From: Candidatus Vogelbacteria bacterium
GTDB taxonomy: Bacteria > Patescibacteriota > Minisyncoccia > Phycocordibacterales > XYD1-FULL-46-19
Assembly (NCBI GenBank): GCA_903864935.1
Contig: CAIPHT010000007.1
Coordinates: forward strand, 16,293-80,292
Direction: 5' to 3'
Length of the DNA stretch: 64,000 nt
Shown: piece after piece, positions 3,539 to 21,789 of the stretch
Position numbering within the stretch: position 1 is the first letter of the stretch
Layout of the letters: each line of letters opens with the position of its first letter
Program-made: the position numbers and the translations under genes
Notes under the pieces: model-generated
What the model saw: only the letters and a program-made list of their open reading frames with translations
What the model was told of the DNA's origin: nothing
Databases searched by the model: none

Positions 3539-4465
3539 CTACGCTGACATATGGTCGGCGTTGATACGAACGTGCCAGTGAGGACCCGAGCCTCCAGTAT
3601 TGCCATAATTCTCGTCAAGATACTCATCGCCATTAGGCATCACGTAGTGAGTCCCTGAGCTATTAGTATAATGACTCGCCGAATTACTCGTGACATAAGC
3701 ATCCACCCCAGGATCTTTATTGAGATCAAAAACTGGTTTGCCCGTACCATGCTCGCCCGGAGGGGTAGGGTTGCCGGGCTGGCGCGCTCCACTGGTAATC
3801 TCCACATTGCAACCTGGGCCACAATCTTGCGATAAATCTTCGGCCCCGGCAATCGCGTTATTAGGCAATTTGCCAACTGGAGACAAGGTAGGAGAAAGAC
3901 CAGGGGCAATATGAACCCCATTAGCCTCAAGACCCGCCCGAGTTTGAGCTTCTGTTTGGCCACCATCAGCCGGGGTCTCGCTCCCAGGGCCACTAGGCTT
4001 CACAGGGGGCTGAGTGGTGTTAGCCGAGGTCTCTTGATATTCAGAGCCTTGGGTTCCGTTATTATTTTGAGAAGACGAATTACCAGATTGGGCCAAATGA
4101 GTCGCGTCTGAAGTCCCAACAATCGTGATAACCGGATGCATTCCCAAACTAACCCGATAAGGACCCACCTGAATAGCGCATTCTTGTTCTCCCTGGACAT
4201 TGCCAAGAAGCCAATTGCCGGGGAGTTCAATATTGCTGTAAGGATAGAGACGGCTTGTCAGCTTATTAAAGATAACTTTTGGTGGACCAGCGACAGCGGT
4301 ATTGATGATTAATAAATTGCCGCCAGAGGCCGTGCAAATAATGACAAATAACGAAAAGCCCCCAAAAGGCGTTTGCCCGGCCGTCGCCAGAGCCCCTCTT
4401 AAAGGGAAAAGGCAAAAAAGAGCAATTATAAGGGGGAAAATAGTTATCCGAGTAAAAAATCTCAT
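3539..4465 (-). CDS. secreted/membrane-anchored low-complexity (Gly/Ser/Thr/Pro-rich) protein
   Basis: N-terminal hydrophobic signal/anchor (IFPLIIALFCLFPL), long compositionally biased region, C-terminal GSGPHWHVRINADH; co-oriented with the downstream 4469..5230 gene. Confidence 0.5.
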   Translation of the reverse strand: MRFFTRITIFPLIIALFCLFPLRGALATAGQTPFGGFSLFVIICTASGGNLLIINTAVAGPPKVIFNKLTSRLYPYSNIELPGNWLLGNVQGEQECAIQVGPYRVSLGMHPVITIVGTSDATHLAQSGNSSSQNNNGTQGSEYQETSANTTQPPVKPSGPGSETPADGGQTEAQTRAGLEANGVHIAPGLSPTLSPVGKLPNNAIAGAEDLSQDCGPGCNVEITSGARQPGNPTPPGEHGTGKPVFDLNKDPGVDAYVTSNSASHYTNSSGTHYVMPNGDEYLDENYGNTGGSGPHWHVRINADHMSA

Positions 4466-4468: not shown

Positions 4469-5230
4469 TTATCTTATTTGGTAGTTAAAAGTTAGCTCAC
4501 CACTCTTCCCGTTGGAATTAGTAACATAAACGGTAATCGGAACAGATATTGACGAGGCAACCCCTCCAGGCAAGGAGTTGATACTACTTAAAACTTCGCC
4601 ACTTAGCGGAATCGAGAAGTTGAAACTCAAACTTTGCCCGTCGGCCGAAGAGATATTATTAAAAGTCTGAAATTTAGTGATAATAGTGTTGCCCGTCTTA
4701 GTAAAACCCTCACCCCGAAGAGTTATTGTCCCCCCATTTGAGACAATTGTCGGTGAAAGAGAGTAAATTTTGGGCGTAATCTTCCTAATCGCCGGGGTCA
4801 CTCTCTGGGAGGAGACCGTCTCTTTAGTTTGAGCACTTGGTTCTGGCCAGTCAGTGGGGATAAGCGCCATCTTACTCTTTCTGGCGCTGAGCAATTTGGG
4901 ACCGAGTTGATTTATCAATTGAACAGTTTGCGGACCAATCTGGCCCGTTTCGCCCATAATTCCGTATTTTTTCTGGAATTTTATGACCGCCAGACGCGTT
5001 TTATCACCAAAGTATTCGGTCTCTTTGCCAAGTGACCCATCGCCAGACACTCCAAGCCTTGTCGCTGGGTCAAGGTTTAAGACAATTTGCGCGATCTGGA
5101 CAGCCAAACCACGCATACCCAAGAAAAGAACCGGGCTCGAGGTCGCCGCCAGAGTTTTGCCAGTTGGGAAAGCAATAATTACCCCCAAAATGGCCACCAG
5201 AAAAATTATTTTGAAAGAAATTTTAAACAT
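4469..5230 (-). CDS. secreted protein with peptidoglycan-binding (PG_binding_1-like) domain and C-terminal IPT/TIG-like beta domain
   Basis: Signal peptide MFKISFKIIFLVAILGVIIAFPTGKTLAA. Motif GMRGLAVQIAQIVLNL...GVSGDGSLGKETEYFGDKTRLAVIKFQKKYGI matches the PG-binding repeat pattern. C-terminal segment YSLSPTIVSNGGTITLRGEGF is TIG-like. Confidence 0.55.
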   Translation of the reverse strand: MFKISFKIIFLVAILGVIIAFPTGKTLAATSSPVLFLGMRGLAVQIAQIVLNLDPATRLGVSGDGSLGKETEYFGDKTRLAVIKFQKKYGIMGETGQIGPQTVQLINQLGPKLLSARKSKMALIPTDWPEPSAQTKETVSSQRVTPAIRKITPKIYSLSPTIVSNGGTITLRGEGFTKTGNTIITKFQTFNNISSADGQSLSFNFSIPLSGEVLSSINSLPGGVASSISVPITVYVTNSNGKSGELTFNYQIR

Positions 5231-5325
5231 AGAAATTGCGTAAGCTAATCATAAATTAAAATTAGCGATTTATCCACTATTTAACGTGCATAAAATGGAG
5301 ATTAAGTAGTATAATTAAGGCACTC

Positions 5326-6018
5326 TTGATTAATCTACCAAGCAAAAGAGTGATATGGCTAGTAATTGTCCTAGTGGTAATTGCCGTTAGTGTTTTGTGG
5401 TATGCCGGATATCAAGACCGCAAAGATAAAGAGGCCAAACTCGCGCAATATACCAAGGAATTTCTCGACAAACAAAAGAACATTGAAGCGGTCGCGGTTA
5501 AAGAACTACAAGGAGATGCCACCGGTAGGACTCCGATAGACAGTATCCCGCCACTTACGATATCAACCTCGACAGCCAGCTCCACCGAACAACTTCGCAT
5601 TTATAATCTCGCGGTCATTGAGGCCCTCAAGCCTCTGAGTGTTAAAAGGGCCAATGAACCCCAAGCTGTTCTTGAGGCGATAGATAAGAACGACCCTTCG
5701 CTACTACGACCGGTAGTGGAGTCAAGAATATATCATCAGACAGTAGCACAGAATCTAGCCCAGATTGTTGTTCCCAAAGAAATCCTAACCGAGCACAAGA
5801 AAATCATCAGTGATCTCAATTTTCTCGTGAGCATTCTTCGCAGTATGGAAGTGGCCACCGAGCAACCCCAGCTAGCTCTGACCAATAGCAAGGCTCTCAT
5901 CACCAATTACCCTGTTCTGATTAAGGATATCAATAACCTAACACAGCATCTTGTTGACCGCGGAGTAAAATTAGGAACCAAAGACCAAATTCAAATTTTT
6001 GTTAGTTTTGCCCAATAA
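5326..6018 (+). CDS. bitopic membrane protein (single N-terminal TM, extracytoplasmic domain); first gene of the T4SS-like operon
   Basis: TM VIWLVIVLVVIAVSVLWYAGY followed by a ~200-aa soluble domain; overlaps the next gene by 20 nt (translational coupling). Size and topology resemble VirB8/PrgL-like components (inference only). Confidence 0.45.
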   Translation: MINLPSKRVIWLVIVLVVIAVSVLWYAGYQDRKDKEAKLAQYTKEFLDKQKNIEAVAVKELQGDATGRTPIDSIPPLTISTSTASSTEQLRIYNLAVIEALKPLSVKRANEPQAVLEAIDKNDPSLLRPVVESRIYHQTVAQNLAQIVVPKEILTEHKKIISDLNFLVSILRSMEVATEQPQLALTNSKALITNYPVLIKDINNLTQHLVDRGVKLGTKDQIQIFVSFAQ

Positions 6019-8629
6019 AATGCGACACCAGTTAAAAACCATAAGAAGTTTAAAAATCCTCCTTGTTTTAGGATTAGTTCTTTTTGTTTTTAATTTTGTC
6101 AGCCCCAAGGTAGCCTTAGCCCTACCATTCCCGAATATTGATACGAGTCTTCTCCCGGGGATAAGTGATACGATACTAGACCCAACGGCACCAACTAATG
6201 GAGATAACGCCGACCCCATTGCTGAACGCCAAAAGAAAGATGAGGAACAGGCAAAACTTGAAGCGGATAGATTGAAGAAAGCTCAAGAAGAAGAGGACGT
6301 TAAGCTCTGCAAGAAAGATCAAGAATCAGTCAACACCGAAGTCGGAGCCGCCGCCTCAGGCGATGCCAGACAAGCTGACGCTTATGACCCTAAGAAACCG
6401 ATAACCGACGCCAATGGTGATGGCATCCCAGACCCGATTCCACCCGCCTGCACCAGTGCCAATGGTAATTCGCCTGCCTATACCGCCGCCTGGGAAGGCT
6501 TCACCCCGAGAGCTTTTAATGACATGGGGCACCAGACAATTGGGATGGGACATCAAATTACCGGCCATGAACCATTCGATGTGAGTGGCGATATCACCCA
6601 AGCCCAAGCGCAACAGTTATATGATGCCGATTATGCCACCGCCCGTTCGAATGCGGAACAATCGGCCACACGACACGGTGTTGATTGGCAAACCCTAAGT
6701 CCAGAACGTCAAACCGTTCTGACTGATATGAGTTTCAACATGGGGGCCTCGGGAGGTGGCGGAGTTGATGGCTTCGGTGATATGTGGGCCAACACCCGAC
6801 AAGCCCAACAAACAGGGGATCAGCGCTATTGGGATGCTGCCGGAGATGAGATTGTTGACAGTACTTATGGGCACCAATTAAAAACACGGTCTGAATACAA
6901 TGCCAATGTCATGCGCACCAGCGATAGCGCCTCAGTTGACCAGCAAGCCAACGCGACAGCATTGAGTCGCGGTCTATGTAGTGGCACAACCGCCTTCAAC
7001 TGGCAGAAACCTTTTAGCCTCTTCGCCATGCTCTTCGGTTCACAAATCGCCGAAGCCGTTGGCGGAACATTTGTCCCCGTGCAAGAGCAAGAGGGGGGCC
7101 TGATGGACAAGACTAAAGAGATCCAAACCAACACCGAACAAACCAGGAATCTCTCTATCCAAATTTGTACTCATCTTCGAGCCATCAAACGCATCCAACA
7201 AGAATTCGAGAAAAAAATGGTAGAGGATGCCAATGTTTCCCGTGTCAAAGCGACTGAGATTGCGAAGTATCAACAAGCACTTAATGGCAACAACGGGTTA
7301 CTAAAAACCGGATATGCCCTAATAGACGAGGATGGAAATGAAACAAAATTGGACCAAGGAATGCCTCTCTATATAGTAAATCAACAAGACTACATGGAAA
7401 AAGCGTCAAGAGAGGGAATCCAGGTGGCAATTGACGATATTACCCAAACACACAATATTTATAATAACCTTGTCTTGGCGAGCCTCCAATCTGAAGCTGG
7501 AGACAACGGCTTAGACTCCGGTCCAAGTATGGAGGATATTCAGAATGTCTTAGGCACCGATAACCCACAAGCGTCAACTGTTGTTGCAAAAAGCTCTTTT
7601 GATAATATTCCCATAATAACAAGCCTGCTCAAACCATTGCGTCAAACTTTTGCCTGGCTAACAGGAAGCGAGGCTTACGCTCTCGACAATAGCACAACCC
7701 AAAACAAGAGCACTGATCCTCGCCAATATTGGCCTAGCCTTATAAAGTTAGCCAAGGAGAATCCCTACACCAGTTATTTAAAGAACGTTGATTATATTAA
7801 TCAAAGTGAAAGTAAAGCCGTGCTCGCAGCAAGAGACACAGCCATACAAGGACAGGGCTTTTTACCAATTCGAACCTGTTTGCAGAAAACCTCTGATGGC
7901 AAAACCTGCTCTATCTGGGGAACATCTCAACCGGGAGCAATTGTTAAAGAAACAACAGCCGCGGCCGCTAATTCTCGTCTCACTCAGTATGAGAATGCCG
8001 ACACGGTTGGCGAGATAATCCAAGGCAACGAACCAAACATTACCGAACTCATAACCAACCTCCCAGCCGAGGGGGGCGGAGGAGCCGTGGGGCCGGGGAT
8101 GAGATCGGCAGAACAGATTTCCCAATCAATACAAACAATGTCGAGTAACCCCTCGACAAATCTCCCCGGGCAAATCATTAACATTGGTGGCGGCAATAAC
8201 TATAACGACAATGTTAACAGTGCCTTAAACGCCTCTGGTCTTGAAGGTCTATTGGGTAGCCTCTTCGGCAACAGCGATAAGCCAAACTTGTCCTCAAATA
8301 GCGAGCTCCAAGGGATAATAGATTCTCTCAAGCAAACCTTTTCCCTTATCTGGAATTTACTAAATCCGATCGTCATTGTTGGCACTAAGGCCAAAGACAA
8401 CGGCAACAAATTGCTCTACTGGTACTCACCAAACGCCAATGATTGCTCAACCACCAATGATTGGATGAGCGCCGGAGCCGAACAGGGGGTTATTAAAGCC
8501 AAGGGCGAGAGCTTAGGCGGTGTTGATAGCAGTCTCTTGGTTACCCCCACCACCACTACGAAATATAAGTTAAAATGTATGAACGGTAATGGCAACTCTG
8601 ACGAGAAAACTCTTGAAGTAAAAATATAA
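5999..8629 (+). CDS. large secreted protein with embedded GH24 (phage/T4-type) lysozyme domain
   Basis: Signal/TM at N-terminus. Segment WEGFTPRAFNDMGHQTIGMGHQITGH...LSPERQTVLTDMSFNMGASG...YWDAAGDEIVDSTYGHQLKTRSEYNANVM follows the GH24 pattern (catalytic Glu, TIGxGH, LxxxQxxALxxxxFNxG, GLxxRRxxExxLF-like). 876 aa. Confidence 0.6.
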   Translation: MLVLPNKMRHQLKTIRSLKILLVLGLVLFVFNFVSPKVALALPFPNIDTSLLPGISDTILDPTAPTNGDNADPIAERQKKDEEQAKLEADRLKKAQEEEDVKLCKKDQESVNTEVGAAASGDARQADAYDPKKPITDANGDGIPDPIPPACTSANGNSPAYTAAWEGFTPRAFNDMGHQTIGMGHQITGHEPFDVSGDITQAQAQQLYDADYATARSNAEQSATRHGVDWQTLSPERQTVLTDMSFNMGASGGGGVDGFGDMWANTRQAQQTGDQRYWDAAGDEIVDSTYGHQLKTRSEYNANVMRTSDSASVDQQANATALSRGLCSGTTAFNWQKPFSLFAMLFGSQIAEAVGGTFVPVQEQEGGLMDKTKEIQTNTEQTRNLSIQICTHLRAIKRIQQEFEKKMVEDANVSRVKATEIAKYQQALNGNNGLLKTGYALIDEDGNETKLDQGMPLYIVNQQDYMEKASREGIQVAIDDITQTHNIYNNLVLASLQSEAGDNGLDSGPSMEDIQNVLGTDNPQASTVVAKSSFDNIPIITSLLKPLRQTFAWLTGSEAYALDNSTTQNKSTDPRQYWPSLIKLAKENPYTSYLKNVDYINQSESKAVLAARDTAIQGQGFLPIRTCLQKTSDGKTCSIWGTSQPGAIVKETTAAAANSRLTQYENADTVGEIIQGNEPNITELITNLPAEGGGGAVGPGMRSAEQISQSIQTMSSNPSTNLPGQIINIGGGNNYNDNVNSALNASGLEGLLGSLFGNSDKPNLSSNSELQGIIDSLKQTFSLIWNLLNPIVIVGTKAKDNGNKLLYWYSPNANDCSTTNDWMSAGAEQGVIKAKGESLGGVDSSLLVTPTTTTKYKLKCMNGNGNSDEKTLEVKI

Positions 8630-8630
8630 A

Positions 8631-10967
8631 ATGTTCAAGCTATTAACAAATAAGAAAAAAATAATTTTAACATTCCTCGTTGGTGTTGGTATCTTAATCA
8701 CCCTCCCAGGTTTAGCTTTAGCCGTTGATGGACCAATTGCAACAGAGGGTTACTCGGTCTCGTTTTCTGCCGGGACTGATTTACCCACCATTCCCGCGGC
8801 CACAGGGATAATGGCTCCAAGACCTTCAACCGAAGCCGAACTCACCCAAAGATCCAATAACGACCAGACCCAAATCGATAATCTCCTCCAACTAAAAAAA
8901 CAGCTGTCCATTGCCAGCGAACAGAGTTTTCTTAAAAATGCCAAGACGGGGGCAGTGGTGGGAGCAGCAAACGGTTATACTTATGGCGGAGTAATAGGAA
9001 CAGGCATTGGAGCAGTCAGGGGCTTCTTTTTATACAATAGCCAGAGAAAAAACTCTATTGCTTTGCTAGACAAAAATGCCGATGCCAAAATTGGAGCTCT
9101 CAAAGATGACCAAGGCGCCTGTCTTGATAAAATAAGTGACATTACTAAAGAGGCCGCTCTTGCCGCGGGCGATCAAGTGGCTCTCCAGGCGGCACTAAAT
9201 AAAGCTGATCAAGCAAAACAAAAAATGGCTCAGTCTCGGGCCGCCTACAATAAAGCCGTCGCTCAATTCAAAACCGTCAACAGCCTCGCCTGTTCGGTTA
9301 ATAATCTGGGTAATTGCGTTCTAGAGGTTACCAGCTGGATAGGGAACATTGTTACTTATGTTTTTGCTCTTCTGTTATGGGCGTCAAGTGGTATTTTTGA
9401 TATTGTCGTCAATTTTTCTATCTTGAATATTGGCACTTGGTTTAAACTACCGTTAGTCGCTAGCGCCTGGCGATTAATGAGAGACTTTGCCAATATTTTC
9501 TTCGTCTTTGTCCTTCTTTATATTGCGATTGGCACAATTTTTGACTTAAAGGGTGTCGGCCAAGGACTTCAAAAGACGATAGTTGGCGTTATTGTTATTG
9601 CCCTCTTAGTTAATTTTAGCGGCTTCTTCGTCCGCGTAGTTGTTGATGCTTCTAATATCATCGCCTATGAATTCTATTCGGGGATAAAAAAGGGGGACTC
9701 CACCTTTTCTTTAGGGACGAACCTAGTCCAAAAAATGGATTTGGGTGCTCGTTTTATTGATCCCAGCTCGTTAGAAGATGCCAAAGCACAGGCCGGGGGG
9801 GTCTTTAATAACTCCCCAATACCAGAGGAAGGGGCTGTCGACAAGCTTAGTTTCCTTAGTATTATTGCGGGAACCTTCGGTAACATTTTAATTATCTTGG
9901 CCACTTCTTTTGTTTTACTCACTGCCGCCATTCTATTTATCATCAGGACAATTACTTTATTGTTTATCTATATTATCGCTCCTTTTGCCTTCGTCTCCAA
10001 GATTATCCCAATAAAGAGTTTCAACAAGTTTGATAAATGGTCTGACACCTTAATCAAACAATCATTCTTTGCTCCGGCTTTTCTTATCCCACTTTATCTG
10101 GTCTTCTTAATCCTTGGCCCGACTGGTATCTCTCATCTGGCCTCCACCGCCAAAGGGACAGAGGGTTGGGCCTTTATTGGACAGGACTCCCTCCTTCTAG
10201 TAATGGCTGACGTTTTCATCCTTGGCTTGATTATTGCCTGCATCTTTATCGCTCAATCTTTAAGCGCTATTGGTTTGGGCTTTGCTACCGGTGTTGCTGG
10301 CAAGGCCAATGCCTTAGGCGTTAGAAATATAGGGAGATTTGTTGGCCGACCGGTGGCAACCGTCGCTGGAAAACTAGGAGGCAATAGACTTATTACTGAG
10401 GCTAAATGGGCAGCATCAAAGACCAGGGTCACCAAAGTTTGGAATTCTGCCTCAATGAAAGAAATTAGGGAGACAAAATTCGGCAAGAAGCTAGGCCAAG
10501 CTATAAAAAATCCAATGCTCTCAGCCAATGACGCTCTTGGTTCAGCCGCTGGTTTGGCAGGGGTAAAAAGTTTCAATGTCTTAGGCAGTTCGGCCGAATC
10601 AAGAAAAGATGCCGCCAAAGCAGAAAAGGAGAAAAAAGAAGAAGACGAAAAAAGAAAGAAAGAAGACAGAGAAAAAGCACTAAAAACCGCCAGTACAGCT
10701 GAAGCCTTAACGATACTTGGTGGTATGACTGACGGCGAGATCAAAGATTTACCAGCTGATATTATTACTTTACCAGCTATTTCTCTAAATCTAGAAAATG
10801 ACCAACTTGTAGCAATCAACAAGGCCGGAAAATTAACCAAAGACCATAAGAAGGCCGTTAAACAAATAATCATGGGAATCGCACCAAAAGGAATACCTGG
10901 CACGATGGGAACACCAGAAGGACAAATCTTCATGATGACGGGAGCGGGAGCGTCCTGGCCGAGATAA
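8631..10967 (+). CDS. polytopic membrane protein, TrbL/VirB6-like T4SS channel component
   Basis: Signal peptide plus a ~200-aa periplasmic coiled-coil region, then at least 6 TM helices (residues ~230-540), then a Lys/Glu-rich cytoplasmic tail (KAEKEKKEEDEKRKKEDREK). Architecture and operon position fit TrbL/VirB6. Start 2 nt after the previous stop. Confidence 0.5.
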   Translation: MFKLLTNKKKIILTFLVGVGILITLPGLALAVDGPIATEGYSVSFSAGTDLPTIPAATGIMAPRPSTEAELTQRSNNDQTQIDNLLQLKKQLSIASEQSFLKNAKTGAVVGAANGYTYGGVIGTGIGAVRGFFLYNSQRKNSIALLDKNADAKIGALKDDQGACLDKISDITKEAALAAGDQVALQAALNKADQAKQKMAQSRAAYNKAVAQFKTVNSLACSVNNLGNCVLEVTSWIGNIVTYVFALLLWASSGIFDIVVNFSILNIGTWFKLPLVASAWRLMRDFANIFFVFVLLYIAIGTIFDLKGVGQGLQKTIVGVIVIALLVNFSGFFVRVVVDASNIIAYEFYSGIKKGDSTFSLGTNLVQKMDLGARFIDPSSLEDAKAQAGGVFNNSPIPEEGAVDKLSFLSIIAGTFGNILIILATSFVLLTAAILFIIRTITLLFIYIIAPFAFVSKIIPIKSFNKFDKWSDTLIKQSFFAPAFLIPLYLVFLILGPTGISHLASTAKGTEGWAFIGQDSLLLVMADVFILGLIIACIFIAQSLSAIGLGFATGVAGKANALGVRNIGRFVGRPVATVAGKLGGNRLITEAKWAASKTRVTKVWNSASMKEIRETKFGKKLGQAIKNPMLSANDALGSAAGLAGVKSFNVLGSSAESRKDAAKAEKEKKEEDEKRKKEDREKALKTASTAEALTILGGMTDGEIKDLPADIITLPAISLNLENDQLVAINKAGKLTKDHKKAVKQIIMGIAPKGIPGTMGTPEGQIFMMTGAGASWPR

Positions 10968-10990
10968 TTTAATAGGATATATTTAGAAAT

Positions 10991-11470
10991 ATGAAAATAG
11001 ACATAGAAAAAATGGATGAGGCTTATGCCCAATTACCAAAGAATTTACAAGACTTACTCGATAGTAAAGAAACAGCCGCAACAATTAATAATATTGGGAA
11101 GAAGTATGCTCTTCATATTGACCAATTAGGGCAGTTAGCTATCGTTGTTAGAGCCATTCTCTCGGGCTTAGTTTCAAGACAAAATTCTCTAAGCCAACTT
11201 CGTGAAGAAACCGGCCTCCCAGAGGACACTATCAATCTTATTGTCTATGACCTAAACCAACAAATTTTTTCTAAGATTCGCGAGGAGTTAGAAAAAGAGA
11301 CACTCCCAACACAAAACACGTCGTCCAAACAAATTTTCGAAGAAAAGATGAGCGGCGTGGCCAATGTCCCCAAACAAGAAGTTGAAGTTAAGACGCAAAC
11401 GGGGGATAATGATACTAAGGACGCGACAGTGAAGCCTCCGCGCGATCCATATCGCGAGCCAATTAATTAA
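10991..11470 (+). CDS. hypothetical soluble protein within the T4SS-like operon
   Basis: 159-aa ORF, no TM; its stop overlaps the start of the next gene (ATG at 11470). Confidence 0.5.
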   Translation: MKIDIEKMDEAYAQLPKNLQDLLDSKETAATINNIGKKYALHIDQLGQLAIVVRAILSGLVSRQNSLSQLREETGLPEDTINLIVYDLNQQIFSKIREELEKETLPTQNTSSKQIFEEKMSGVANVPKQEVEVKTQTGDNDTKDATVKPPRDPYREPIN

Positions 11471-11910
11471 TGCAATTCCAATTGCCACAATTTATTGAGG
11501 TCGAGGATACCATTTTTGGACCTCTCACCTTCAAGCAATTCCTCTACCTGGCCGGTGGCGCCGGTTTGGCCTTTATTTGTTATGTTTATCTGCCTATCTA
11601 CTTGGCAATCTTTCCCATTATTGGAGTTATTGCCTTATCAACCCTACTCGCTTTTTATAAATACAATGGACGAAACTTTGTTTATATTGTTGAGTCGGCC
11701 ACCAAATTCTTCTTCTCCAGCAAACTCTATTTATGGAAGCAGACTCTGGCAGGAGAAAGTAAAAGAACGGTAGTGGTGAAGGAAGAGAAGAGCGCGCCGG
11801 AGGGTATTAATCTCCCTCGCTTATCAGCCAGCAAATTAAAAGATCTCACTTGGAGCCTTGACGTCCAAAACAGTCCCGAAGCTGAGCAACAAAATAATTA
11901 TGGCACTTAA
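11470..11910 (+). CDS. PrgI/VirB3-like small membrane protein
   Basis: N-terminal motif EDTIFGPLTFKQFLYLAGGAGLAFICYV followed by two TM helices; matches the PrgI-family (VirB3 analogue) hallmark of an F/L-rich RQF[LI]YL box preceding the TM hairpin. Confidence 0.5.
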   Translation: MQFQLPQFIEVEDTIFGPLTFKQFLYLAGGAGLAFICYVYLPIYLAIFPIIGVIALSTLLAFYKYNGRNFVYIVESATKFFFSSKLYLWKQTLAGESKRTVVVKEEKSAPEGINLPRLSASKLKDLTWSLDVQNSPEAEQQNNYGT

Positions 11911-12577
11911 AGATTTTATCCCCAACAATAAATCCACCCAAGACTTCGTTCCAATCAAGGAGATTAAGAACGGAGTGGTGATTCTTAAGGATGGCTCTTT
12001 GCGAGCCGTGGTCATGGTCTCCTCGCTCAACTTTGGTCTCAAGTCAGACGACGAGAAAGTGGCAATCATCAGCGCCTTCCAAAACTTCCTTAACTCTATT
12101 GATTTCACTATTCAGATTTCCATTCAATCGAGACGCCTCAATATTGAGCCCTATCTCCAAACTCTAAGAGATCGCATGGCCGAGCAAACAAATGAGTTGC
12201 TCAAGGTCCAAATTAGAGAATACATAGAGTTTATTAGGTTCTATACTGATCATCAGAACGTCATGACCAAAACTTTCTTTGTCGTCGTTTCTTACGAACC
12301 AGCTTTAATTGCTGGGGGAGAGAGAGGTTTCCTCTCCAAGATTTTTAACAGCCAGAAAGCGAATTCCAAGAGCGCCATCATTAACGAATTCGACCAGAAT
12401 GTCGCGCAGCTAAATCAACGAACTAACGTTATCAAGAGCGGCCTAAGCCGGATGGGCTTAGTTAGCGCCGTGCTAGGAACCGAAGAGCTAATTGAGCTTT
12501 ATTTCAAATTATTCAATCCCGGGGAGAACGATGCCCCAGCCAGTAGCAATAATGGCTCAACCGCCGAAGCCAAATAA
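11900..12577 (+). CDS. VirB4/TrbE-family N-terminal domain protein (separate ORF)
   Basis: Motif VPIKEIKNGVVILKDGSLRAVVMVSSLNFGLKSDDEKVAIISAFQNFLNSIDFTIQISIQ matches the conserved N-terminal domain of Gram-positive-type VirB4 (PrgJ/TcpF-like). Alternative upstream ATG at 11858. Ends 5 nt before the ATPase ORF, in a different frame. Confidence 0.5.
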   Translation: MALKDFIPNNKSTQDFVPIKEIKNGVVILKDGSLRAVVMVSSLNFGLKSDDEKVAIISAFQNFLNSIDFTIQISIQSRRLNIEPYLQTLRDRMAEQTNELLKVQIREYIEFIRFYTDHQNVMTKTFFVVVSYEPALIAGGERGFLSKIFNSQKANSKSAIINEFDQNVAQLNQRTNVIKSGLSRMGLVSAVLGTEELIELYFKLFNPGENDAPASSNNGSTAEAK

Positions 12578-12582
12578 GTTAT

Positions 12583-14412
12583 ATGAATATCCCTTTTCTA
12601 AACCAAAAAAATAAGAACGAGGAGCTGATTCCCATCCTCCCGCAAGACATTTACCAAGTTGGAGTCCTAGAGCTTCAAGACATTATTGCTCCCTCGGCCC
12701 TACGCGTGACACCCAAGAATCTTAATTTGGGCGAGAAGATTGCACGTACTCTCTTTGTCATTTCTTATCCTCGCTTCTTGAGCGAAGAGTGGTTCTCACC
12801 CATTATCAACCTAGATAGTGTCTTCGACATTTCAATCTTTGTCCACCCGCTCGACACAACAACAACTCTCCGCGCCCTGCAAAAGAAGATTGCCGAGGTT
12901 GAGAGCCAAATTATGGTCCGCGAACAGAAGGGGATGGTCCGTGACCCAATGCTTGATACCGCCCAAGCTGATATCGAGAGCCTGCGCGATCAATTAATGC
13001 AGGCCACCGAGAAAATGTTCAGTGTCGGCCTCTATCTCACCCTCTACGGTGAGAGTGAAGAAGAATTAGATCATACCGAGGGGCAAATTAAATCCGTTCT
13101 CGATGCCAAGCTAATTTATCTTAAGACCGCCCTCTTCCAGCAAGAAGAAGGGTTCAAGAGTGTGGCCCCCTTCGCTACCGACTACCTCGAGGTCAATAAT
13201 CGACTTAATTCCACACCCCTTTCTAGTATCTTCCCCTTTGTCTCCTTTGACTTAACTTCTAATAAGGGAATTCTCTATGGGCGTAATATGCATAATTCTT
13301 CTCTTGTCATTTTCGACCGTTTCTCGCTAGAGAACTACAACTCGGTCATTTTTGCCAAATCGGGTTCGGGGAAATCTTTTGCCACTAAACTGGAGATTCT
13401 TCGTAGTCTCATGTTTGATATTGATGTTCTAGTTATTGACCCAGAAAGGGAGTACGAATTCTTGGCCGAAGCTGTCGGTGGACGATATTTCAACATTTCT
13501 CTCGCCTCTGAGCACCACATTAACCCCTTCGACCTGCCTTTTGCCCGCGAAGATGAGTCACCGGCCGACGTTCTTCGGTCTAACATCATCAATCTGGTCG
13601 GTCTCTTCCGTATTATGTTGGGCGGTCTTAGCCCTGAAGAAGACTCAATCCTCGACAATGCCATCTCCGAGACCTATGCGCTTAAAGATATCACGCCGGA
13701 TTCCGATTTTACTAACAAACCGGCGCCCCTCTTGTCAGATCTCGAATTAGTCTTGGCCGGCATGGAGGGGGGAGATTCGCTGGCCCAGAGATTACTTAAG
13801 TATACTCAAGGCACCTGGGCGGGCTTTCTCAACAAACCAACCAACGTTGATATCAACAAGAAATTCGTCGTTTTCTCTATCCGCGACATGGAGGACGAAC
13901 TTAAGCCAGTGGCCATGTATATCGTCATGCACCACATTTGGAACGCGATTAGACGCAATCTCAAGCGCCGCCTCCTGGTTGTCGACGAGGCTTGGGTTAT
14001 GATGAAGGATGACGATACCGCCTCTTTCCTCTTCTCCTTGGTGAAGAGAGGCCGTAAGTATTATCTGGGCGTCGCCACTATTACTCAAGACGTGGGAGAC
14101 TTCATTCGTTCACAATACGGTCTGCCCATCATCACCAACTCGTCTATTCAAATTCTCTTGAAACAGTCACCAGCCTCTATTGATGAGGTTCAGAAGACCT
14201 TTAATCTTACCGATGAAGAGAAATACTTCCTCTTGGAGTCACCGGTCGGGAATGGAATTTTTATTGCTGGTCTGAAGAGGGTAGAGATCAGGATTGAAGC
14301 CTCTTATACCGAGGAACAAATTGTTACCTCTGATCCTTCACAAATTCTCGCCATTAAGAAAGCCAAGTTAGATTTCGATACCGCCAAACAAACTGAGCAA
14401 ACCAATGCCTAA
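12583..14412 (+). CDS. virB4: VirB4/TrbE/TraC-family conjugative-type ATPase (C-terminal ATPase part)
   Basis: Walker A AKSGSGKS, Walker B LLVVDEAWVMM, ATITQDVGDF motif (VirB4 family); 609 aa. Confidence 0.85.
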   Translation: MNIPFLNQKNKNEELIPILPQDIYQVGVLELQDIIAPSALRVTPKNLNLGEKIARTLFVISYPRFLSEEWFSPIINLDSVFDISIFVHPLDTTTTLRALQKKIAEVESQIMVREQKGMVRDPMLDTAQADIESLRDQLMQATEKMFSVGLYLTLYGESEEELDHTEGQIKSVLDAKLIYLKTALFQQEEGFKSVAPFATDYLEVNNRLNSTPLSSIFPFVSFDLTSNKGILYGRNMHNSSLVIFDRFSLENYNSVIFAKSGSGKSFATKLEILRSLMFDIDVLVIDPEREYEFLAEAVGGRYFNISLASEHHINPFDLPFAREDESPADVLRSNIINLVGLFRIMLGGLSPEEDSILDNAISETYALKDITPDSDFTNKPAPLLSDLELVLAGMEGGDSLAQRLLKYTQGTWAGFLNKPTNVDINKKFVVFSIRDMEDELKPVAMYIVMHHIWNAIRRNLKRRLLVVDEAWVMMKDDDTASFLFSLVKRGRKYYLGVATITQDVGDFIRSQYGLPIITNSSIQILLKQSPASIDEVQKTFNLTDEEKYFLLESPVGNGIFIAGLKRVEIRIEASYTEEQIVTSDPSQILAIKKAKLDFDTAKQTEQTNA

Positions 14413-14803
14413 TGCTAAGATGAGGATAAGCCCGATTGTCGCCTCTTTTATGATTGGACTGGCCTTGGTTTATGATACCCTTAAATTTTTGTTGAGTTTC
14501 ATTTTGATGGGGTGGGTCGTCGCTATTTGGTCGTTCCTAACCTTCTGGTTCTGGTTTACTTACTTAGGAGTCAGTTTTATGAAGCCAGGCAAGATGAGAG
14601 GGGCGAAGATTGCGTCGCTTAGCGTCCCGGCAATAATTGGAATCTTACCCTTCATCTCCGCACTACCAGGCGAAACTCTGGGGGTAACAACGACAATAGG
14701 CATTGCTAGCGCCGAAGATCTGACCAAGGGGATTACTCCAGAGGTAGCCCAAGCTCTTGGCTCAGGATTAAAACAATTTAAGGGGGGAGGGATTGGCCAT
14801 TAA
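14405..14803 (+). CDS. small polytopic membrane protein (possible VirB2/VirB3-like)
   Basis: Three hydrophobic helices; overlaps the previous gene by 8 nt and the next gene by 11 nt. Confidence 0.45.
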   Translation: MPNAKMRISPIVASFMIGLALVYDTLKFLLSFILMGWVVAIWSFLTFWFWFTYLGVSFMKPGKMRGAKIASLSVPAIIGILPFISALPGETLGVTTTIGIASAEDLTKGITPEVAQALGSGLKQFKGGGIGH

Positions 14804-15848
14804 CTATTTAAGTATTATAATTAAAGAGAAAATGACTAAAAACTTTTTTTTAACTTTAATTCTAGCATTATTATTTATACCGACGACAATTCTGGCCGTC
14901 ACCGAGACAGGGGTTGGTAGTAATGTCTTGGCCACCATCACCCCCACTAACCCTCGGCCGGGGGATATCGTTAATATTTCCTTAAGCGGGTATGGCTTCG
15001 ATACGAATCAGAGTTATTTTAAATGGATGAGAGATGGTAAGGACGTTTTGTCTGGCAATGGACAGAGTCAATACTCCTTCCAACTTGGGCGCCTAGGGGT
15101 CGCCACAAAAATTGATGTGACAATTTTCTCGGACACCAGAGCTCTAGCGACAAAATCATTCTATTTTGAACCCGCCGACATTGATTTTGTTTGGCAAGCG
15201 GACACCTTTGTCCCGCCTTTTTACAAAGGAAAAGAGCGAGCCAGTGCCGGAGCGAATATTAAAATACTCGCCACCCCTTATCTTATTAATAATTTAGGTC
15301 AAGCAGAGAATAAATCTAACCTTAATTACTCTTGGTCACAAGATGGTAAGCCGCTCAACGATCGTTCAGGGCTGGGCAAATCAAACATAACTATTGCCAC
15401 TGGGCCAGACAAGAATCAGATTAAAATTGATTTAGCTGTTAGCACAATTGATAAAAGCCGTTCAACTAACAAATCTTTAATTATAAATTTAGATAAGCCA
15501 GAACTGGCTTTCTATGAGATTAAGCCTCTCGCGGGAACTAATTTTTTAAAACAAGTTATCGGGAGCTATGACCTCTATGATGATGAGGCAAGTTTCTTGG
15601 CTATCCCTTATTTCTGGCCCCGCAATCAAATAAATAACATCAATTATCTTTGGGCAATTAACGGCCTCCAGGCTTCTCCACAAAAAGATCCTTGGTCGCT
15701 AACCGTCCGCGAACCAAGCGGGGGAGCGGGGCAAAACGAGATAAATCTTCAGGTTAGTGATGCCCAAAATAGCTTAGGCCCTGTCAGCAACCACTTTAAT
15801 ATTAAATTTGGTAATAATTTGTTAAAATTCAATAATGCAAACCAATAA
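14793..15848 (+). CDS. secreted protein (signal peptide), T4SS-like operon
   Basis: Signal peptide MTKNFFLTLILALLFIPTTILAV; 351 aa, beta-rich composition. Confidence 0.5.
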   Translation: MAINYLSIIIKEKMTKNFFLTLILALLFIPTTILAVTETGVGSNVLATITPTNPRPGDIVNISLSGYGFDTNQSYFKWMRDGKDVLSGNGQSQYSFQLGRLGVATKIDVTIFSDTRALATKSFYFEPADIDFVWQADTFVPPFYKGKERASAGANIKILATPYLINNLGQAENKSNLNYSWSQDGKPLNDRSGLGKSNITIATGPDKNQIKIDLAVSTIDKSRSTNKSLIINLDKPELAFYEIKPLAGTNFLKQVIGSYDLYDDEASFLAIPYFWPRNQINNINYLWAINGLQASPQKDPWSLTVREPSGGAGQNEINLQVSDAQNSLGPVSNHFNIKFGNNLLKFNNANQ

Positions 15849-16218
15849 CTCAAACCTACTGGCCGCCACCGCTGGGTACACCCTGCTCGAACCCTCAGTG
15901 GTTCAACCTGACCCATCCAAGGCTTCAGGTACTCCAATCAGTCTTAGTCTCTACCTTAAGGGGGCCTATGTCACAATGTTTATTGTTGTCATTATTGGGG
16001 CGATTTTGGTTATGGTTTATTATGGTATTGGTTATATGATGTCGGATGTCGCGAGTTTCAAAGGAACAGCCAAAAGCCGTCTGACAAAAGTCTTTATTGG
16101 TATCGGTATCGCCATCCTCTCCTTTATCTTGCTCAACCAGATTAACCCGGACTTGGCTGGTAATCTAGGCAAAAATAGCAACAATATCATCCTCAACGGT
16201 CTTAACTCTTTATTTTAA
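15835..16218 (+). CDS. pilin-like small membrane protein (TrbC/VirB2-like topology)
   Basis: Long N-terminal leader followed by two hydrophobic helices (FIVVIIGAILVMVYYGIGYMM and VFIGIGIAILSFILL) separated by a short polar loop, ~120 aa; matches VirB2-type pilin architecture (inference). Confidence 0.4.
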   Translation: MQTNNSNLLAATAGYTLLEPSVVQPDPSKASGTPISLSLYLKGAYVTMFIVVIIGAILVMVYYGIGYMMSDVASFKGTAKSRLTKVFIGIGIAILSFILLNQINPDLAGNLGKNSNNIILNGLNSLF

Positions 16219-16221
16219 AAA

Positions 16222-17433
16222 ATGAAAAAAGCGCTAACTATAATTCTCCTAGTCCTTATCGCTGGTTCTTTAGGCACTCTTGGTTTTTTTATTTATAAGC
16301 AAAGTCAATCTACTACAAGAACTGTCACCAATACCCCAGTCTCGGAAGAGTCACCCTTCCCAATGGGGAGTAGTACTAACCCCGTTACCACCAACTATAA
16401 CTCCGGCAATAGTTCAACTAATTATCCTGAGGCTAATCAGCCCCTCGGCGTTCCTAACCAACCAGCCTTAAGCCAAATGAGTTTGGCGGGTATAACAGTT
16501 CTTTCAATTAACAAAAATCTCCAAACTTTTTTTACGGATAAAGAAACAGGTAATATATATTCTCTCGACGGCCAAAATAATCCCACGAGACTTAGTCTCG
16601 TGACCCTCCCCGGAGTTGAGGAATCTTATCTTGGTTATAGAAACAACAGTTTAGGTATTATCTTGCGACAAATCAAAGGGTTAAATATTGTAAATGAAAT
16701 CGGCCAAATTAAACTAGACAGCTCAGCCCCGACAACATTAAACCCCCACCTTTGGGATATCTCTCTCAGTTCTCTTGCCCTCTCTCCCAACAGCCAAAAA
16801 ATTTCTTTCTTAACCGAGATAACGGATAAAACCATACTTTATACGACAGATTGGTCCCTCCAAAAACCTAAGAAACTCTGGAGCTCACCACTCTCCAGTT
16901 GGAATATTTCATGGCCCAAAGATAGTTTAATTGTCATTACCTCTAAACCCTCTTATGATTACCCCGGTGTGGCTTATTTCCTAGATGCCCAAACCGGCAA
17001 AGAAACGAAGATATTAAACAACATTAATGGGCTAAATCTGTCTGTTTCGCCCAATGGAGACAAACTTATCTATACCAAGAGTTTACTTAGTGGCTTTAGC
17101 TTGTACTCTTATGATACAAAAGTAGAGGAAAGTCGTCTTCTCGATTTCAACACTCTTCCCGATAAATGTGTTTGGTCTGACAATGATACTTTATATTGTG
17201 CAGTACCAAAAAATATCCCAACTGGGCACTACCCCGATAATTGGTATCAAGGCAAAATTAGTTTCTCTGACAATGTTTGGAAAATTGATTTAAAACAAAA
17301 GACAACTACCATCGTCAGCACCCTAAAGGGGGATTATGATTTGTATAACCTAGTCATAAACAAACAAACAGGCTGGCTCTATGCCCTTAATCGAGGAGAT
17401 AATAAGCTCCAAGCCTTTAGTTTGAAGCCTTAG
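16222..17433 (+). CDS. secreted beta-propeller-like protein (TolB/PD40-like repeats)
   Basis: Signal peptide plus Ser/Thr/Asn-rich linker; C-terminal repeats such as LSVSPNGDKLIYTKS; last gene of the operon. 3' end overlaps yidC convergently by 17 nt. Confidence 0.5.
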   Translation: MKKALTIILLVLIAGSLGTLGFFIYKQSQSTTRTVTNTPVSEESPFPMGSSTNPVTTNYNSGNSSTNYPEANQPLGVPNQPALSQMSLAGITVLSINKNLQTFFTDKETGNIYSLDGQNNPTRLSLVTLPGVEESYLGYRNNSLGIILRQIKGLNIVNEIGQIKLDSSAPTTLNPHLWDISLSSLALSPNSQKISFLTEITDKTILYTTDWSLQKPKKLWSSPLSSWNISWPKDSLIVITSKPSYDYPGVAYFLDAQTGKETKILNNINGLNLSVSPNGDKLIYTKSLLSGFSLYSYDTKVEESRLLDFNTLPDKCVWSDNDTLYCAVPKNIPTGHYPDNWYQGKISFSDNVWKIDLKQKTTTIVSTLKGDYDLYNLVINKQTGWLYALNRGDNKLQAFSLKP

Positions 17434-18178
17434 GGGCCCTTAGGACCGCGTCCTGGTCCTTAATCTTCTTAATAACCACCACCTCATAGATGGCGGAGAA
17501 AACGTTACTGGTGACCCAATAAAGGGAGATGGCCGCGGGTAAAGTAAAGGCGATAACCGCCGTCATCACCGGCATAGCATAACGCATTTGGAAATCCATA
17601 CTCTTGGCTAAATCCTGGCCAAAAGAGACCTCTTTTTTGTCTGAAGACTTATTTTTTTCTCGCTTGGGTAGAGAAAGTGTAACCTGGAGATATTGAGTTA
17701 CCCCAGTTAAAAAGGCGAGAGCATAATTATGACTAACCGTTAATTTAACAAAACCCAAGAAAATTGTGTTGATATGATTGGGGATAGTAATAAAAGAGTA
17801 AACAAGGTTGATGTCAATAGTAAAACTCTGGCGAAAGACATAAAAAAGGGAAATAATAATAGGAATTTGGATAAGCAAAACCAAAAAGCTGCTAAAGGGG
17901 TTAATCTTCTCTTTTTTATATAATTCCATCGTCAGGCGAGACTGTTCGGGTAAATTATCTTTGTTTTGCTCTTTTATCGCCTTCAATTCACCCTCGACAG
18001 CCTTCATTTTTATTTGAGTCATTACCGAGGTCTTATAGAGAGGGAAAATGACAATTTTAACTAGAATAGTAAGAAGAATAATGGCCAAACCAAGATCTGC
18101 CCCAGGGAGAATCGCCGTGAGCCAAACCAGAAGATTGTAGAGGGGGATAAAAACAATTATTTTGAAAAAATTAATCAT
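17417..18178 (-). CDS. yidC: membrane protein insertase YidC (short form)
   Basis: Motifs ILLTILVKIVIFPL and MQIKMKAVEGELKAIKEQ, five TM segments, conserved position downstream of rnpA. Confidence 0.85.
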   Translation of the reverse strand: MINFFKIIVFIPLYNLLVWLTAILPGADLGLAIILLTILVKIVIFPLYKTSVMTQIKMKAVEGELKAIKEQNKDNLPEQSRLTMELYKKEKINPFSSFLVLLIQIPIIISLFYVFRQSFTIDINLVYSFITIPNHINTIFLGFVKLTVSHNYALAFLTGVTQYLQVTLSLPKREKNKSSDKKEVSFGQDLAKSMDFQMRYAMPVMTAVIAFTLPAAISLYWVTSNVFSAIYEVVVIKKIKDQDAVLRAPKASN

Positions 18179-18195
18179 ATTTTGCTATTCTAACA

Positions 18196-18552
18196 CTATT
18201 TTAAAATTTTAGCTGTTCTAATTAAAGCCAAGACCTCTTCCTCAAACTGTTTGAATTCAAGTCTAGAAAGATCCTCTTTTACTTGGATGATAATATCTGA
18301 ATTATTTACCACTTCGGGCCAGATTTTTTCTAAAATAGCGTGGAGACGCCTCTTGATCAAATGGCGACGGGCCGAGAGGGGAACAACCTTATTCCCAATA
18401 ACCACCGCCACCCTCGGACTTTGGCCATAATTCTCCTCTGTGGATAACCTGTTATGAACTCGAATATTAAGACTAGGGGACGAGAAAACCCTGTTTTGTT
18501 TCAAAACAAGGGGTAAAAGCTCTTTATTTATACGGTATTTAACCGGAAGCAT
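18196..18552 (-). CDS. rnpA: ribonuclease P protein component
   Basis: RNR-like basic motif ARRHLIKRRL; 118 aa; immediately downstream of rpmH. Confidence 0.8.
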   Translation of the reverse strand: MLPVKYRINKELLPLVLKQNRVFSSPSLNIRVHNRLSTEENYGQSPRVAVVIGNKVVPLSARRHLIKRRLHAILEKIWPEVVNNSDIIIQVKEDLSRLEFKQFEEEVLALIRTAKILK

Positions 18553-18555
18553 TAA

Positions 18556-18690
18556 TTAGACAGCCAATTTATGGCGACCTTTGAGACGGCGTCGGGCCAA
18601 AACCTTAGCCCCGGTTGGGGACTTAGTTCGAGCCAAAAAACCATGGGTAGTGGCTCGTTTCTTCTTTTTAGGATTATACGTAAAAGACAT
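18556..18690 (-). CDS. rpmH: 50S ribosomal protein L34
   Basis: Not in the ORF track (44 aa). Minus-strand translation is [44 protein letters not shown], the canonical L34 sequence. Sits 3 nt upstream of rnpA. Confidence 0.85.
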
Positions 18691-18820
18691 GGGGATAGTA
18701 TACCAGAAAAAAAGCTTTTAGCAATATCCACAAGTAATCCACCACATATAAACAGAATAGGTAAGATTGCTAGTTTTTCCACAAGGCCTATAATTGAAGC
18801 AAGTAAGATAATTATTTTAT
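18691..18820. promoter_or_regulatory. dnaA upstream region with DnaA-box-like 9-mers
   Basis: aTATCCACA at 18725..18733 and TTTTCCACA at ~18776..18784 (consensus TTATCCACA); divergent rpmH/dnaA promoter region. Confidence 0.4.
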
Positions 18821-20197: not shown

Positions 20198-20432
20198 ATT
20201 TCTGTTAATAACCTGTGGAGAAGATTGTTAATAAAAAGATATTAAAAACAGGATAAGTTATAGAAAAATAAAAATATTATTTTAGAAGTAAAATTAATCT
20301 TAAGTAATCAACAGTTGAATAAAATTTATTATCTCAAATATGTTGCCAAATAAAGATATTCTGAGTTCTCCACATATCCCCAACTATAACAATAATAAGT
20401 TTCTTTTTAATTAAAAATAATTTATAAATACT
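20198..20432. other. candidate oriC (dnaA-dnaN intergenic, AT-rich with inverted DnaA-box-like pair)
   Basis: Very AT-rich 235-bp spacer. TGTGGAGAA at 20214..20222 and its reverse complement TTCTCCACA at 20366..20374 flank an AT-rich stretch. Confidence 0.45.
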
Positions 20433-21536: not shown

Positions 21537-21537
21537 G

Positions 21538-21789
21538 ATGGATAACTTCAAAGATCTCCTTAAACTTTATAGTCAAAAATTAAATAGTACTCAATTAATT
21601 ATTGACGAAATTCTAGCTGTTATAAATAAAGAAACCGGTCTAAATCTTAATAAAACAAATTTAGTAACCAGAGATGGTATTGCTTATCTTAAAGTTAAAC
21701 CAAAACAAAAATTAGAGATTATCCTACATAAAGACAGGATAATCTCTAATTTTAAAGAAGAAAAAATTCTAATTACTGACCTAAAGTAA
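21538..21789 (+). CDS. small protein, possibly DUF721/DciA-like
   Basis: 83 aa directly after dnaN; segment TRDGIAYLKVKPKQKLEIILHKDRII loosely follows the DUF721 pattern. Weak. Confidence 0.3.
   Translation: MDNFKDLLKLYSQKLNSTQLIIDEILAVINKETGLNLNKTNLVTRDGIAYLKVKPKQKLEIILHKDRIISNFKEEKILITDLK

Follow-up and report, generated by a model that had tools for sequence, protein, structure and literature searches.

A cluster of conjugation-type genes that lies beside a chromosomal replication origin raises the question of whether it moves DNA between cells or forms a fixed apparatus of the chromosome with another use. We examined such a cluster in a window of 64 kb (64,000 nucleotides of the Candidatus Vogelbacteria contig CAIPHT010000007.1), where a cassette containing a VirB4-family ATPase gene occupies positions 5326–17433 of the plus strand. 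Taken together, the evidence below makes it very probable that this region is a vertically inherited chromosomal type IV secretion system (T4SS) of the Patescibacteria clade in a Paceibacteria (Ca. Vogelbacteria-like) genome. T4SSs of this clade descend from the conjugation apparatus of single-membrane bacteria (the MPF-FATA class). The cluster is the origin-adjacent, relaxase-less T4SS already described in 2023 and 2025, and the interpretation is supported yet already known (PMC12102498, PMC10633639); it is a correct reading and not a new discovery.

A Probable Patescibacteria-Clade T4SS

In a survey of 3,035 Patescibacteria genomes, VirB4 was found in 2,417, and most of these proteins fall into a single clade within MPF-FATA (Quiñonero-Coronel et al. 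2025 Microb Genom; PMC12102498). The commonest companion of VirB4 in that survey is TrsD, followed by PrgI/VirB3, VirB6, and VirB2-like pilins, whereas a relaxase almost never accompanies it; the absence of VirB8 is typical, and dnaA, dnaN, rnpA, ksgA, and rpmH are close to the cluster in Paceibacteria and Microgenomatia (PMC12102498). The cassette in our window agrees with this description in that VirB4, an adjacent TrsD, PrgI/VirB3, a predicted VirB6, and a VirB2-like pilin are all present, no relaxase or type IV coupling protein (T4CP) gene is found nearby, the site is near dnaA, dnaN, rnpA, and ksgA as reported for Paceibacteria, and the role of VirB1 is taken by non-orthologous lysozyme or peptidase proteins. 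It differs in having a single pilin gene, whereas arrays of 2–11 genes are common in Saccharimonadia and Microgenomatia. The predicted placement in the clade comes from sequence identity: in a VirB4 scan of a genome collection, which matched at least 577 Paceibacteria-type contigs, VirB4 of the window is 71–90% identical to that of the best 80 contigs, which we used for all locus comparisons, versus at most 35% to plasmid VirB4s.

The window thus adds a further Paceibacteria copy to the roughly 2,400 genomes in which this cluster has been surveyed, and it represents no new system type. It is valuable as a clean reference copy that is resolved in full and annotated for every gene, which could guide structural and genetic work on a system that is nearly universal in a phylum holding a large share of bacterial diversity.

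Gene Order and Chromosomal Setting

Positions 5326–17433 form an uninterrupted run of open reading frames (ORFs) on the plus strand, with 11 ORFs of at least 100 amino acids (aa) in the ORF listing of the window, here called g1 to g11 in their order. An earlier reading of the letters without database searches (the sequence-only reading) had given the coordinates and quoted overlaps correctly, and its description of co-oriented genes with tight junctions holds; its count of twelve genes does not. The stop/start positions at the successive junctions are 6018/6020, 8629/8631, 10967/10991, 11470/11470 (a TAATG overlap), 11910/11900, 12577/12583, 14412/14405, 14803/14832 (or a TTG at 14793), 15848/15835, and 16218/16222, so the widest intergenic gap is 28 nt and the remaining junctions are smaller gaps or short overlaps; the stop of g11 lies inside the convergent yidC, with an overlap of 17 nt. 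The longest-ORF TTG starts at 5999, 11858, and 14793 should probably be replaced by ATG at 6020, 11900, and 14832, which match the public gene calls. The operon is real and correctly delimited. In iterative profile searches, each of the 11 genes recurs at the expected position and in the same order in 51–71 of the 80 related loci, and the arrangement is therefore not due to chance.

The cassette is flanked by ksgA (2712–3536) on one side and by the convergent yidC (17417–18178) on the other, followed by rnpA, dnaA (18821–20197), dnaN (at 20433), and a gene for a class A penicillin-binding protein (PBP). DnaA-box-like sites are present at 18439, 18724, 18775, 20214, and 20366, and the minimum of the cumulative GC skew falls at about 16–19 kb. 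These features confirm that the cluster adjoins the replication origin, as the sequence-only reading had proposed. The 80 contigs come from metagenome-assembled genomes (MAGs) of Ca. Vogelbacteria, Taylorbacteria, Campbellbacteria, Wolfebacteria, Nomurabacteria, and other Paceibacteria, and the order uvrD-ksgA-cassette-yidC-rnpA-dnaA-dnaN-PBP1 is kept in the approximately 43 loci long enough to judge, so that comparative synteny, which had been suggested as a check, shows the same arrangement throughout these long relatives. Across the same genome pairs the median identity is 74% for VirB4, 59% for DnaA, and 43% for DnaN, in loci that were themselves chosen by VirB4 similarity.

Several side observations concern this setting. 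The operon lies on the plus strand to the left of oriC (about 18.4–20.4 kb), its internal GC skew is negative, and all long relatives have it in this orientation; because it is transcribed toward oriC, it is head-on to the leftward replication fork. The dnaA–dnaN region (18000–22000) has a GC content of 0.29–0.38 versus about 0.43 in the rest of the window. Among the relatives, many third-party annotation (TPA)-assembled MAGs titled “uncultured Candidatus Saccharibacteria bacterium” (loci L004, L006, L008, and others) have a VirB4 72–79% identical to g7 and show the Paceibacteria synteny; their titles are probably taxonomic mislabels.

Is the Cassette Part of a Mobile Element?

If the cassette were the transfer module of an integrative and conjugative element (ICE) or an integrated plasmid, moving DNA between cells, several of its features would be expected: its VirB4 scores above the cut-off of the CD1110 conjugal-transfer ATPase model, the nearest VirB4 relatives outside the candidate phyla radiation (CPR) are found on conjugative plasmids of Bacillota and Actinomycetota, and PrgI, TrsD, and VirB6 are components of conjugation systems. 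However, no relaxase, VirD4/T4CP, or integrase was found among the scanned ORFs of the window, in which the downstream scan took in ten of the thirteen ORFs of at least 250 aa (RuvB, PilB, PolA, Fpg, Mur ligase, FemAB, PilM, HAD hydrolase, a DNA polymerase III delta-like protein, and a 399-aa acidic protein). VirD4 is excluded from the window: of its ORFs of at least 400 aa, two lie in the cassette without a Pfam match, and each of the others belongs to another family. A search for att sites in the flanks gave only imperfect repeats of 14–20 nt at chance level and none longer than 20 nt, there is no tRNA gene next to the cassette (the nearest is at 41991), and the GC content of the operon is ordinary and equals that of its surroundings (0.443 vs. 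0.432 for the window). Moreover, the housekeeping flanks are identical in the approximately 43 species-level relatives, and a relaxase is found nearby for only 15 of 2,474 virB4 genes in Patescibacteria (PMC12102498). The fixed synteny, the ordinary GC content, and the lack of att repeats, a nearby tRNA, and, among the scanned ORFs, a relaxase, VirD4, and an integrase therefore show the cluster as an ancient part of the chromosome that is inherited vertically, rather than an ICE. This agrees with the sequence-only reading, which had noticed no relaxase or VirD4 in the window and had favored a chromosomal apparatus over a plasmid conjugation module, and which had thus come to the published view on its own. 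The conjugative interpretation is largely refuted, and we consider it very improbable.

Like the MPF-FATA T4SSs of monoderm bacteria (Prg/Pcf of pCF10, Trs of pGO1, and the CD1110 family of C. difficile CTn2), the cluster has a VirB4 above the CD1110 cut-off and homologs of PrgI and TrsD, and it shares with them the lack of an outer-membrane core complex and the theme of a membrane-anchored wall hydrolase. It differs from them in having no relaxase, T4CP, oriT, or adhesin (PrgB), in its VirB2-like pilin, of which there is none in the Gram-positive systems, and in being chromosomally fixed beside oriC instead of carried by a mobile element.

The VirB4 Motor Is Encoded by Two Genes

The signature T4SS motor, a VirB4-family ATPase of 609 aa, is encoded by g7 (12583–14412). 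It matches the NCBIfam model conju_CD1110 with 375.2 bits (cut-off 325) over profile positions 179–732 and Pfam P-loop_TraG with 98 bits, and both the Walker A (AKSGSGKS, residues 258–265) and the Walker B motif (LLVVDEAW, residues 464–471) are intact. The VirB4 assignment made from the sequence alone is thus upheld, and the match above cut-off is to a conjugal-transfer ATPase. The plasmid VirB4s nearest to g7 come from Actinomycetota and Bacillota, belong to the monoderm CD1110 family, and are 28–35% identical to it.

The CD1110 model is matched by g7 only from position 179 on, and the lacking N-terminal domain is encoded by the preceding gene. This gene, g6 (11900–12577, 225 aa from ATG), encodes a TrsD-like protein, that is, a free-standing homolog of the VirB4 N-terminal domain. 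It matches TrsD/TraD (NF041427, E = 1.6e-6), VirB4_plasma (E = 7.8e-12), and positions 2–122 of the CD1110 profile in NCBIfam, as well as positions 14–177 of Pfam TraC_F_IV, with all of these matches under the curated cut-offs; the public record annotates it as PF26593 TraC-like. The sequence-only reading had listed a single VirB4, of which the ATPase stands but not the single gene: there are two genes. In 77 of 77 related loci, TrsD and VirB4 have an ORF each and no fusion of the two occurs, and because the split is common to all of these loci, a frameshifted or pseudogenized VirB4 can be ruled out.

The same observations bear on whether the cassette could be an ancient conjugation system in decay, of which only a nonfunctional remnant is left. 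The replacement of a full-length canonical VirB4 by two genes, and the fact that no VirB8, VirD4, or relaxase is detected nearby, are what such decay might leave. On the other hand, all 11 ORFs and the Walker A and B motifs are intact, the TrsD/VirB4 split is kept in every locus compared, VirB4 is more conserved than DnaA in the same genomes, and these genomes are tiny and streamlined, while the homologous system is essential in Southlakia epibionticum (PMC10633639). With such conservation a remnant is excluded, and we give this explanation practically no credence.

Membrane Partners and Pilin

A two-transmembrane (TM) hairpin of 146 aa, encoded by g5 (11470–11910), is the PrgI-family analog of VirB3. 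It matches Pfam PF12666 (PrgI) with 40.6 bits (cut-off 27, E = 3.9e-10), in support of the PrgI/VirB3-like assignment made from the letters; its TM segments are at residues 25–43 and 44–62, and the gene is found in 68 loci.

The extended VirB6/TrbL-like polytopic membrane protein of 778 aa is encoded by g3 (8631–10967) and is assigned by topology and by Pfam matches at the family level. It has seven hydrophobic segments, arranged as a signal/TM segment, an outside domain of about 200 aa, six TM segments, and a cytoplasmic tail of about 240 aa with a Lys/Glu-rich stretch (16 K/E among the 40 residues 641–680). Eight of 32 family members match Pfam TrbL/VirB6 (PF04610; best E = 1.9e-9), and g3 is present in 59 loci, so that a VirB6/TrbL-like protein with a KE-rich tail, as the sequence-only reading had described it, has support from its family. 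The family profile gave no match to solved VirB6 structures, only low-complexity noise. Judged from their sequences, the VirB4 ATPase (g7), TrsD (g6), the PrgI hairpin (g5), and the extended VirB6-like channel (g3) make up the predicted cytoplasmic-membrane translocon.

To this translocon are added a predicted VirB2-like pilin and predicted enzymes for cutting and binding the wall, namely, within the cassette, the GH24 domain of g2 and, upstream of it, a PG_binding_1 protein and a probable LAS-type peptidase (all described below). The pilin module is the two-TM hairpin encoded by g10 (15835–16218, 127 aa, TM segments 43–61 and 83–101), which is present in a single copy here. Pfam T4SS_pilin (PF18895) recognizes 58 of the 68 proteins of its family, with E = 1.1e-10 at best, and TrbC/VirB2 recognizes 10. 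Two VirB2-like mini membrane proteins had been expected from the sequence alone, and g10 is the one for which the family evidence holds.

The other candidate was g8 (14405–14803), a small polytopic membrane protein of 132 aa, which always directly follows virB4 and whose family is found in 53 loci. It has at least three TM segments (8–26, 28–46, and 69–87) and not a two-TM hairpin, none of the 53 family members matches T4SS_pilin or TrbC, and hhalign gives a probability of 0.6% in the comparison with the pilin family. We therefore rejected g8 as a second VirB2-like pilin.

The g10 module is short in this window. In relatives it usually carries a C-terminal extension, with a median protein length of 312 aa, and the recognizable extensions in the family are peptidoglycan hydrolase or transpeptidase domains (CHAP in 4, YkuD in 3, NlpC/P60 in 3, Amidase_5 in 2, SLT in 1, and SLT_3 in 1). 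Examples of such longer proteins are found at L026:13864–15288, L063:13014–14063, and L007:13201–14169, and in one related locus two pilin modules are inside one ORF.

Wall-Cutting and Wall-Binding Proteins

The second gene of the cassette, g2 (6020–8629), encodes a secreted protein of 869 or 876 aa, with a GH24-like domain, a Cys-containing core, and a C-terminal beta-sandwich. The predicted T4-lysozyme-like (GH24) domain spans residues of about 160–320. A family profile built from nine close homologs matches T4 lysozyme (T4L) with E = 3.3e-14 over T4L residues 10–155, and Glu166, Asp175, and Thr180 align to T4L E11, D20, and T26, so that the catalytic triad is kept. The single sequence gives a PDB match to the gp5/T4L lysozyme (E = 1e-3), and a homolog is labeled GH24 by JGI; the window copy alone has no Pfam match at E ≤ 0.1. 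The full-length AlphaFold2 (AF2) model of g2 is poor (pLDDT 49) and unfit for a fold search, and the GH24 assignment therefore comes from profile and sequence evidence. These data agree with the phage-type muramidase domain that the sequence-only reading had seen in an 876-aa secreted protein. Compared with phage GH24 lysozymes, including the baseplate spike gp5, the domain aligns to the whole of T4 lysozyme with the catalytic residues conserved, but it is embedded in a Sec-type secreted protein of a T4SS operon.

The conserved Cys-containing core of g2 (residues of about 430–650) has no known fold and no relative in the PDB or Pfam, and it is common to the position-2 proteins in 51 loci. Among the position-2 ORFs of 50 loci, 1 matches Phage_lysozyme and 5 bear F5/8 type C (discoidin) domains. 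By these comparisons the lysozyme is a lineage-specific addition onto a conserved core. Only the closest relatives have the GH24 domain; in other Paceibacteria, discoidin or Ig-like domains are joined to this core instead.

Two associated secreted proteins are encoded on the minus strand upstream of the cassette, and both had been taken for peptidoglycan-binding or TIG proteins. This holds for the one at 4469–5230 (253 aa), which matches Pfam PG_binding_1 (E = 3e-8, 34.1 bits, cut-off 23), begins with a hydrophobic segment, and has homologs at the same position in 15 relatives. It does not hold for the one at 3539–4465 (308 aa), which has no Pfam match, neither peptidoglycan-binding nor TIG. 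The latter is a composite protein, recognized by homology to modules of relatives: a signal/TM segment at the N-terminus is followed by a Cys-containing module of about 120 aa and, beyond a low-complexity linker, by a C-terminal domain that contains an H-x7-D ... HWH motif. More than 20 relatives encode the N-terminal Cys-containing module by itself, as a small secreted protein, on the minus strand upstream of the cassette, and in five to six relatives the pilin-like gene (g10) has a C-terminal extension homologous to the C-terminal domain of the 3539–4465 protein. In the PDB the C-terminal domain has weak matches only, to the Hedgehog N-domain at its zinc-site motif. The zinc-binding fold of the Hedgehog N-domain is common with the DD-peptidases (LAS group). 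The C-terminal domain is probably a metallopeptidase of the LAS/DD-peptidase fold, and the protein probably a LAS-type wall peptidase, with the match itself being suggestive only (E = 0.2–0.4).

Conserved Accessory Proteins

The first gene of the cassette, g1 (5326–6018), encodes a conserved bitopic membrane protein of 230 aa with one TM segment (residues 9–27), and its family is found in 51 of the 80 related loci. The AF2 model is all-helical (mean pLDDT 77.8, and about 90 over residues 90–220) and predicts an extracytoplasmic four-helix bundle. A fold search gave no significant match in the PDB (the best, E = 0.026, is a designed bundle), and the sequence has no Pfam or PDB match. The sequence-only reading had marked this ORF for structure prediction and had listed VirB8/NTF2 among the profiles to search; with an all-helical model that is not the NTF2 fold, no significant fold match, and an empty sequence profile, g1 was rejected as a VirB8/NTF2-like protein.

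A small soluble helical protein of 159 aa is encoded by g4 (10991–11470), which is recognized by family conservation: it is found in 61 of the 80 loci, always just upstream of PrgI. It has no TM segment and no match in Pfam, NCBIfam, or the PDB, and its disordered tail ends with a conserved DPYRE (residues 152–156 of 159, with P153 nearly invariant), which could be a docking peptide.

The two remaining proteins are beta-rich, as had been described for several secreted proteins of the cluster. A protein of Ig-like beta-sandwich repeats, secreted or anchored, is encoded by g9 (14832–15848, 338 aa from ATG); it has an N-terminal hydrophobic segment and is found in 71 of the 80 loci. Its family profile matches the Ig domains of phage T4 Hoc (E = 1.1e-4), and among 36 family members 4 match BiPBP_C and 2 match PKD_3. 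The last gene, g11 (16222–17433), encodes a membrane-anchored protein of 403 aa (TM 6–24) with a predicted beta-propeller, found in 58 loci. It has no Pfam family, and its family profile matches the propellers of TolB with E = 2.9e-5 and designed ones with E values as low as 5.6e-11.

We infer that the five lineage-conserved proteins g1, g4, g8, g9, and g11 complete the extracellular part of the system. Together with the g2 core, they do not appear to be named as components in PMC12102498 and PMC10633639. The residual novelty of the locus is in these five conserved unnamed components, in the modular hydrolase fusions to the pilin module in relatives, and in the lineage-specific lysozyme.

What Does the System Transport?

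In the one species tested, the system is essential for epibiotic life: the cluster SEML1_0006–0019 of S. epibionticum, a Saccharibacterium, is essential for epibiotic growth, and this T4SS has no recognizable coupling or relaxase proteins (Wang et al. 2023 Cell; PMC10633639). According to a T4SS review of 2025 and a perspective of 2024 the function is unknown, with effector delivery or uptake of host material as the proposals.

The composition of the cassette suggests how it may work. The eleven tightly packed genes would be transcribed as one unit from the spacer at 5231–5325. VirB4/TrsD would dock on PrgI and VirB6 and power the assembly of a pilin-based conduit, which would cross the epibiont's own wall, locally opened by the hydrolases, toward a host cell. 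In line with this, tubular connections between parasite and host were seen in a cultivated strain of Microgenomatia (see below). The exported Ig-repeat, propeller, helical-bundle, and lysozyme-bearing proteins may build the extracellular part or guide it toward the host. Because no relaxase or coupling protein accompanies the system, transport of proteins or host macromolecules is likelier than conjugation of DNA, and the cargo would most likely be proteins or host-derived macromolecules at the epibiont–host interface. As to direction, effector export and import of host material are both possible.

One form of this idea is that the cassette is an import machine, like ComB or Ced, which draws host DNA, RNA, or other macromolecules into a nucleotide-auxotrophic cell. 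Such an import was proposed by the 2025 survey (PMC12102498) and by the 2024 perspective. In S. epibionticum, ComEC competence is dispensable whereas the T4SS is essential. For this Microgenomatia strain, a 2026 preprint (bioRxiv 10.64898/2026.06.21.733656) links feeding on host RNA with the tubular connections, which may be T4SS pili. Moreover, the layout without relaxase and T4CP is that of H. pylori ComB, and both ComB and archaeal Ced, for which import is proposed, are driven by VirB4 in the same way; g7 also has a weak match in NCBIfam to CedB, the archaeal DNA-import ATPase (E = 3.5e-13). However, this match is far under the cut-off (49 bits vs. 700), ComB is a diderm VirB2–10 set, the cassette has no nuclease, DNA-binding, or ComEC-like partner, and the many exported hydrolase- and adhesin-like domains suit export or attachment equally, while the sequence sets no direction of transport. 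Import is thus conceivable but, in our judgment, not the likelier account.

A broader proposal, which we offer as doubtful speculation, is that the Paceibacteria T4SS is an eleven-gene core organelle in which about half of the parts (g1, g4, g8, g9, g11, and the g2 core) have no counterpart in described T4SSs and the pilin module carries interchangeable wall-hydrolase heads, so that together they make up a conduit that drills through the wall and draws on the macromolecules of the host as food. If true, this organelle would be mechanistically distinct from conjugative and effector T4SSs.

Several points weigh against the interpretation of the cassette as a Patescibacteria-clade T4SS working toward a host. 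The window copy of g3 has no Pfam or NCBIfam match of its own and reaches significance via its family only, and that of g10 is weak when taken alone (E = 0.039 for PF18895 and E = 0.004 for the ICE pilin-like NF045849). No ORF matches VirB8, PrgL, or TraM, which leaves the system with no VirB8-like component and with g1 as the only bitopic candidate of the right size. A VirD4 or relaxase gene may lie in the genome outside the 64 kb examined, and VirD4 homologs are far from virB4 in many Patescibacteria (PMC12102498). The single-transcript organization is deduced from gene spacing only. Finally, the host cell in the model is hypothetical for Paceibacteria/Vogelbacteria.

The Upstream Spacer and Other Features of the Window

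The divergent intergenic spacer at 5231–5325, to which no strand is assigned, is the presumed promoter of the operon and contains TATAAT at 5310–5315, 10 nt before the TTG start of g1. Scans for consensus promoters and terminators gave chance-level numbers (31 observed vs. 25.6 in shuffled sequences, and 21 vs. 18.7, respectively), and because the promoter scan is not above the shuffled controls, the promoter at this position is a presumption only. The spacer also contains a DnaA-box-like site with one mismatch (TTATCCACT, at 5270–5278). Window-wide, 29 DnaA-box-like sites are observed versus 14.6 in shuffles, and a lone one-mismatch site may be due to chance.

Type IV pilus genes are found in the same window, namely a PilB-type T2SSE ATPase gene at 30039–31736 on the minus strand and PilM at 49620–50693 on the plus strand; the type IV pilus is the other envelope machine reported to be essential in Saccharibacteria (PMC10633639). 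The only unexplained large ORF outside the cassette, at 27629–28828 on the plus strand, encodes an acidic helical protein of 399 aa, which is apparently cytoplasmic and has no Pfam match.

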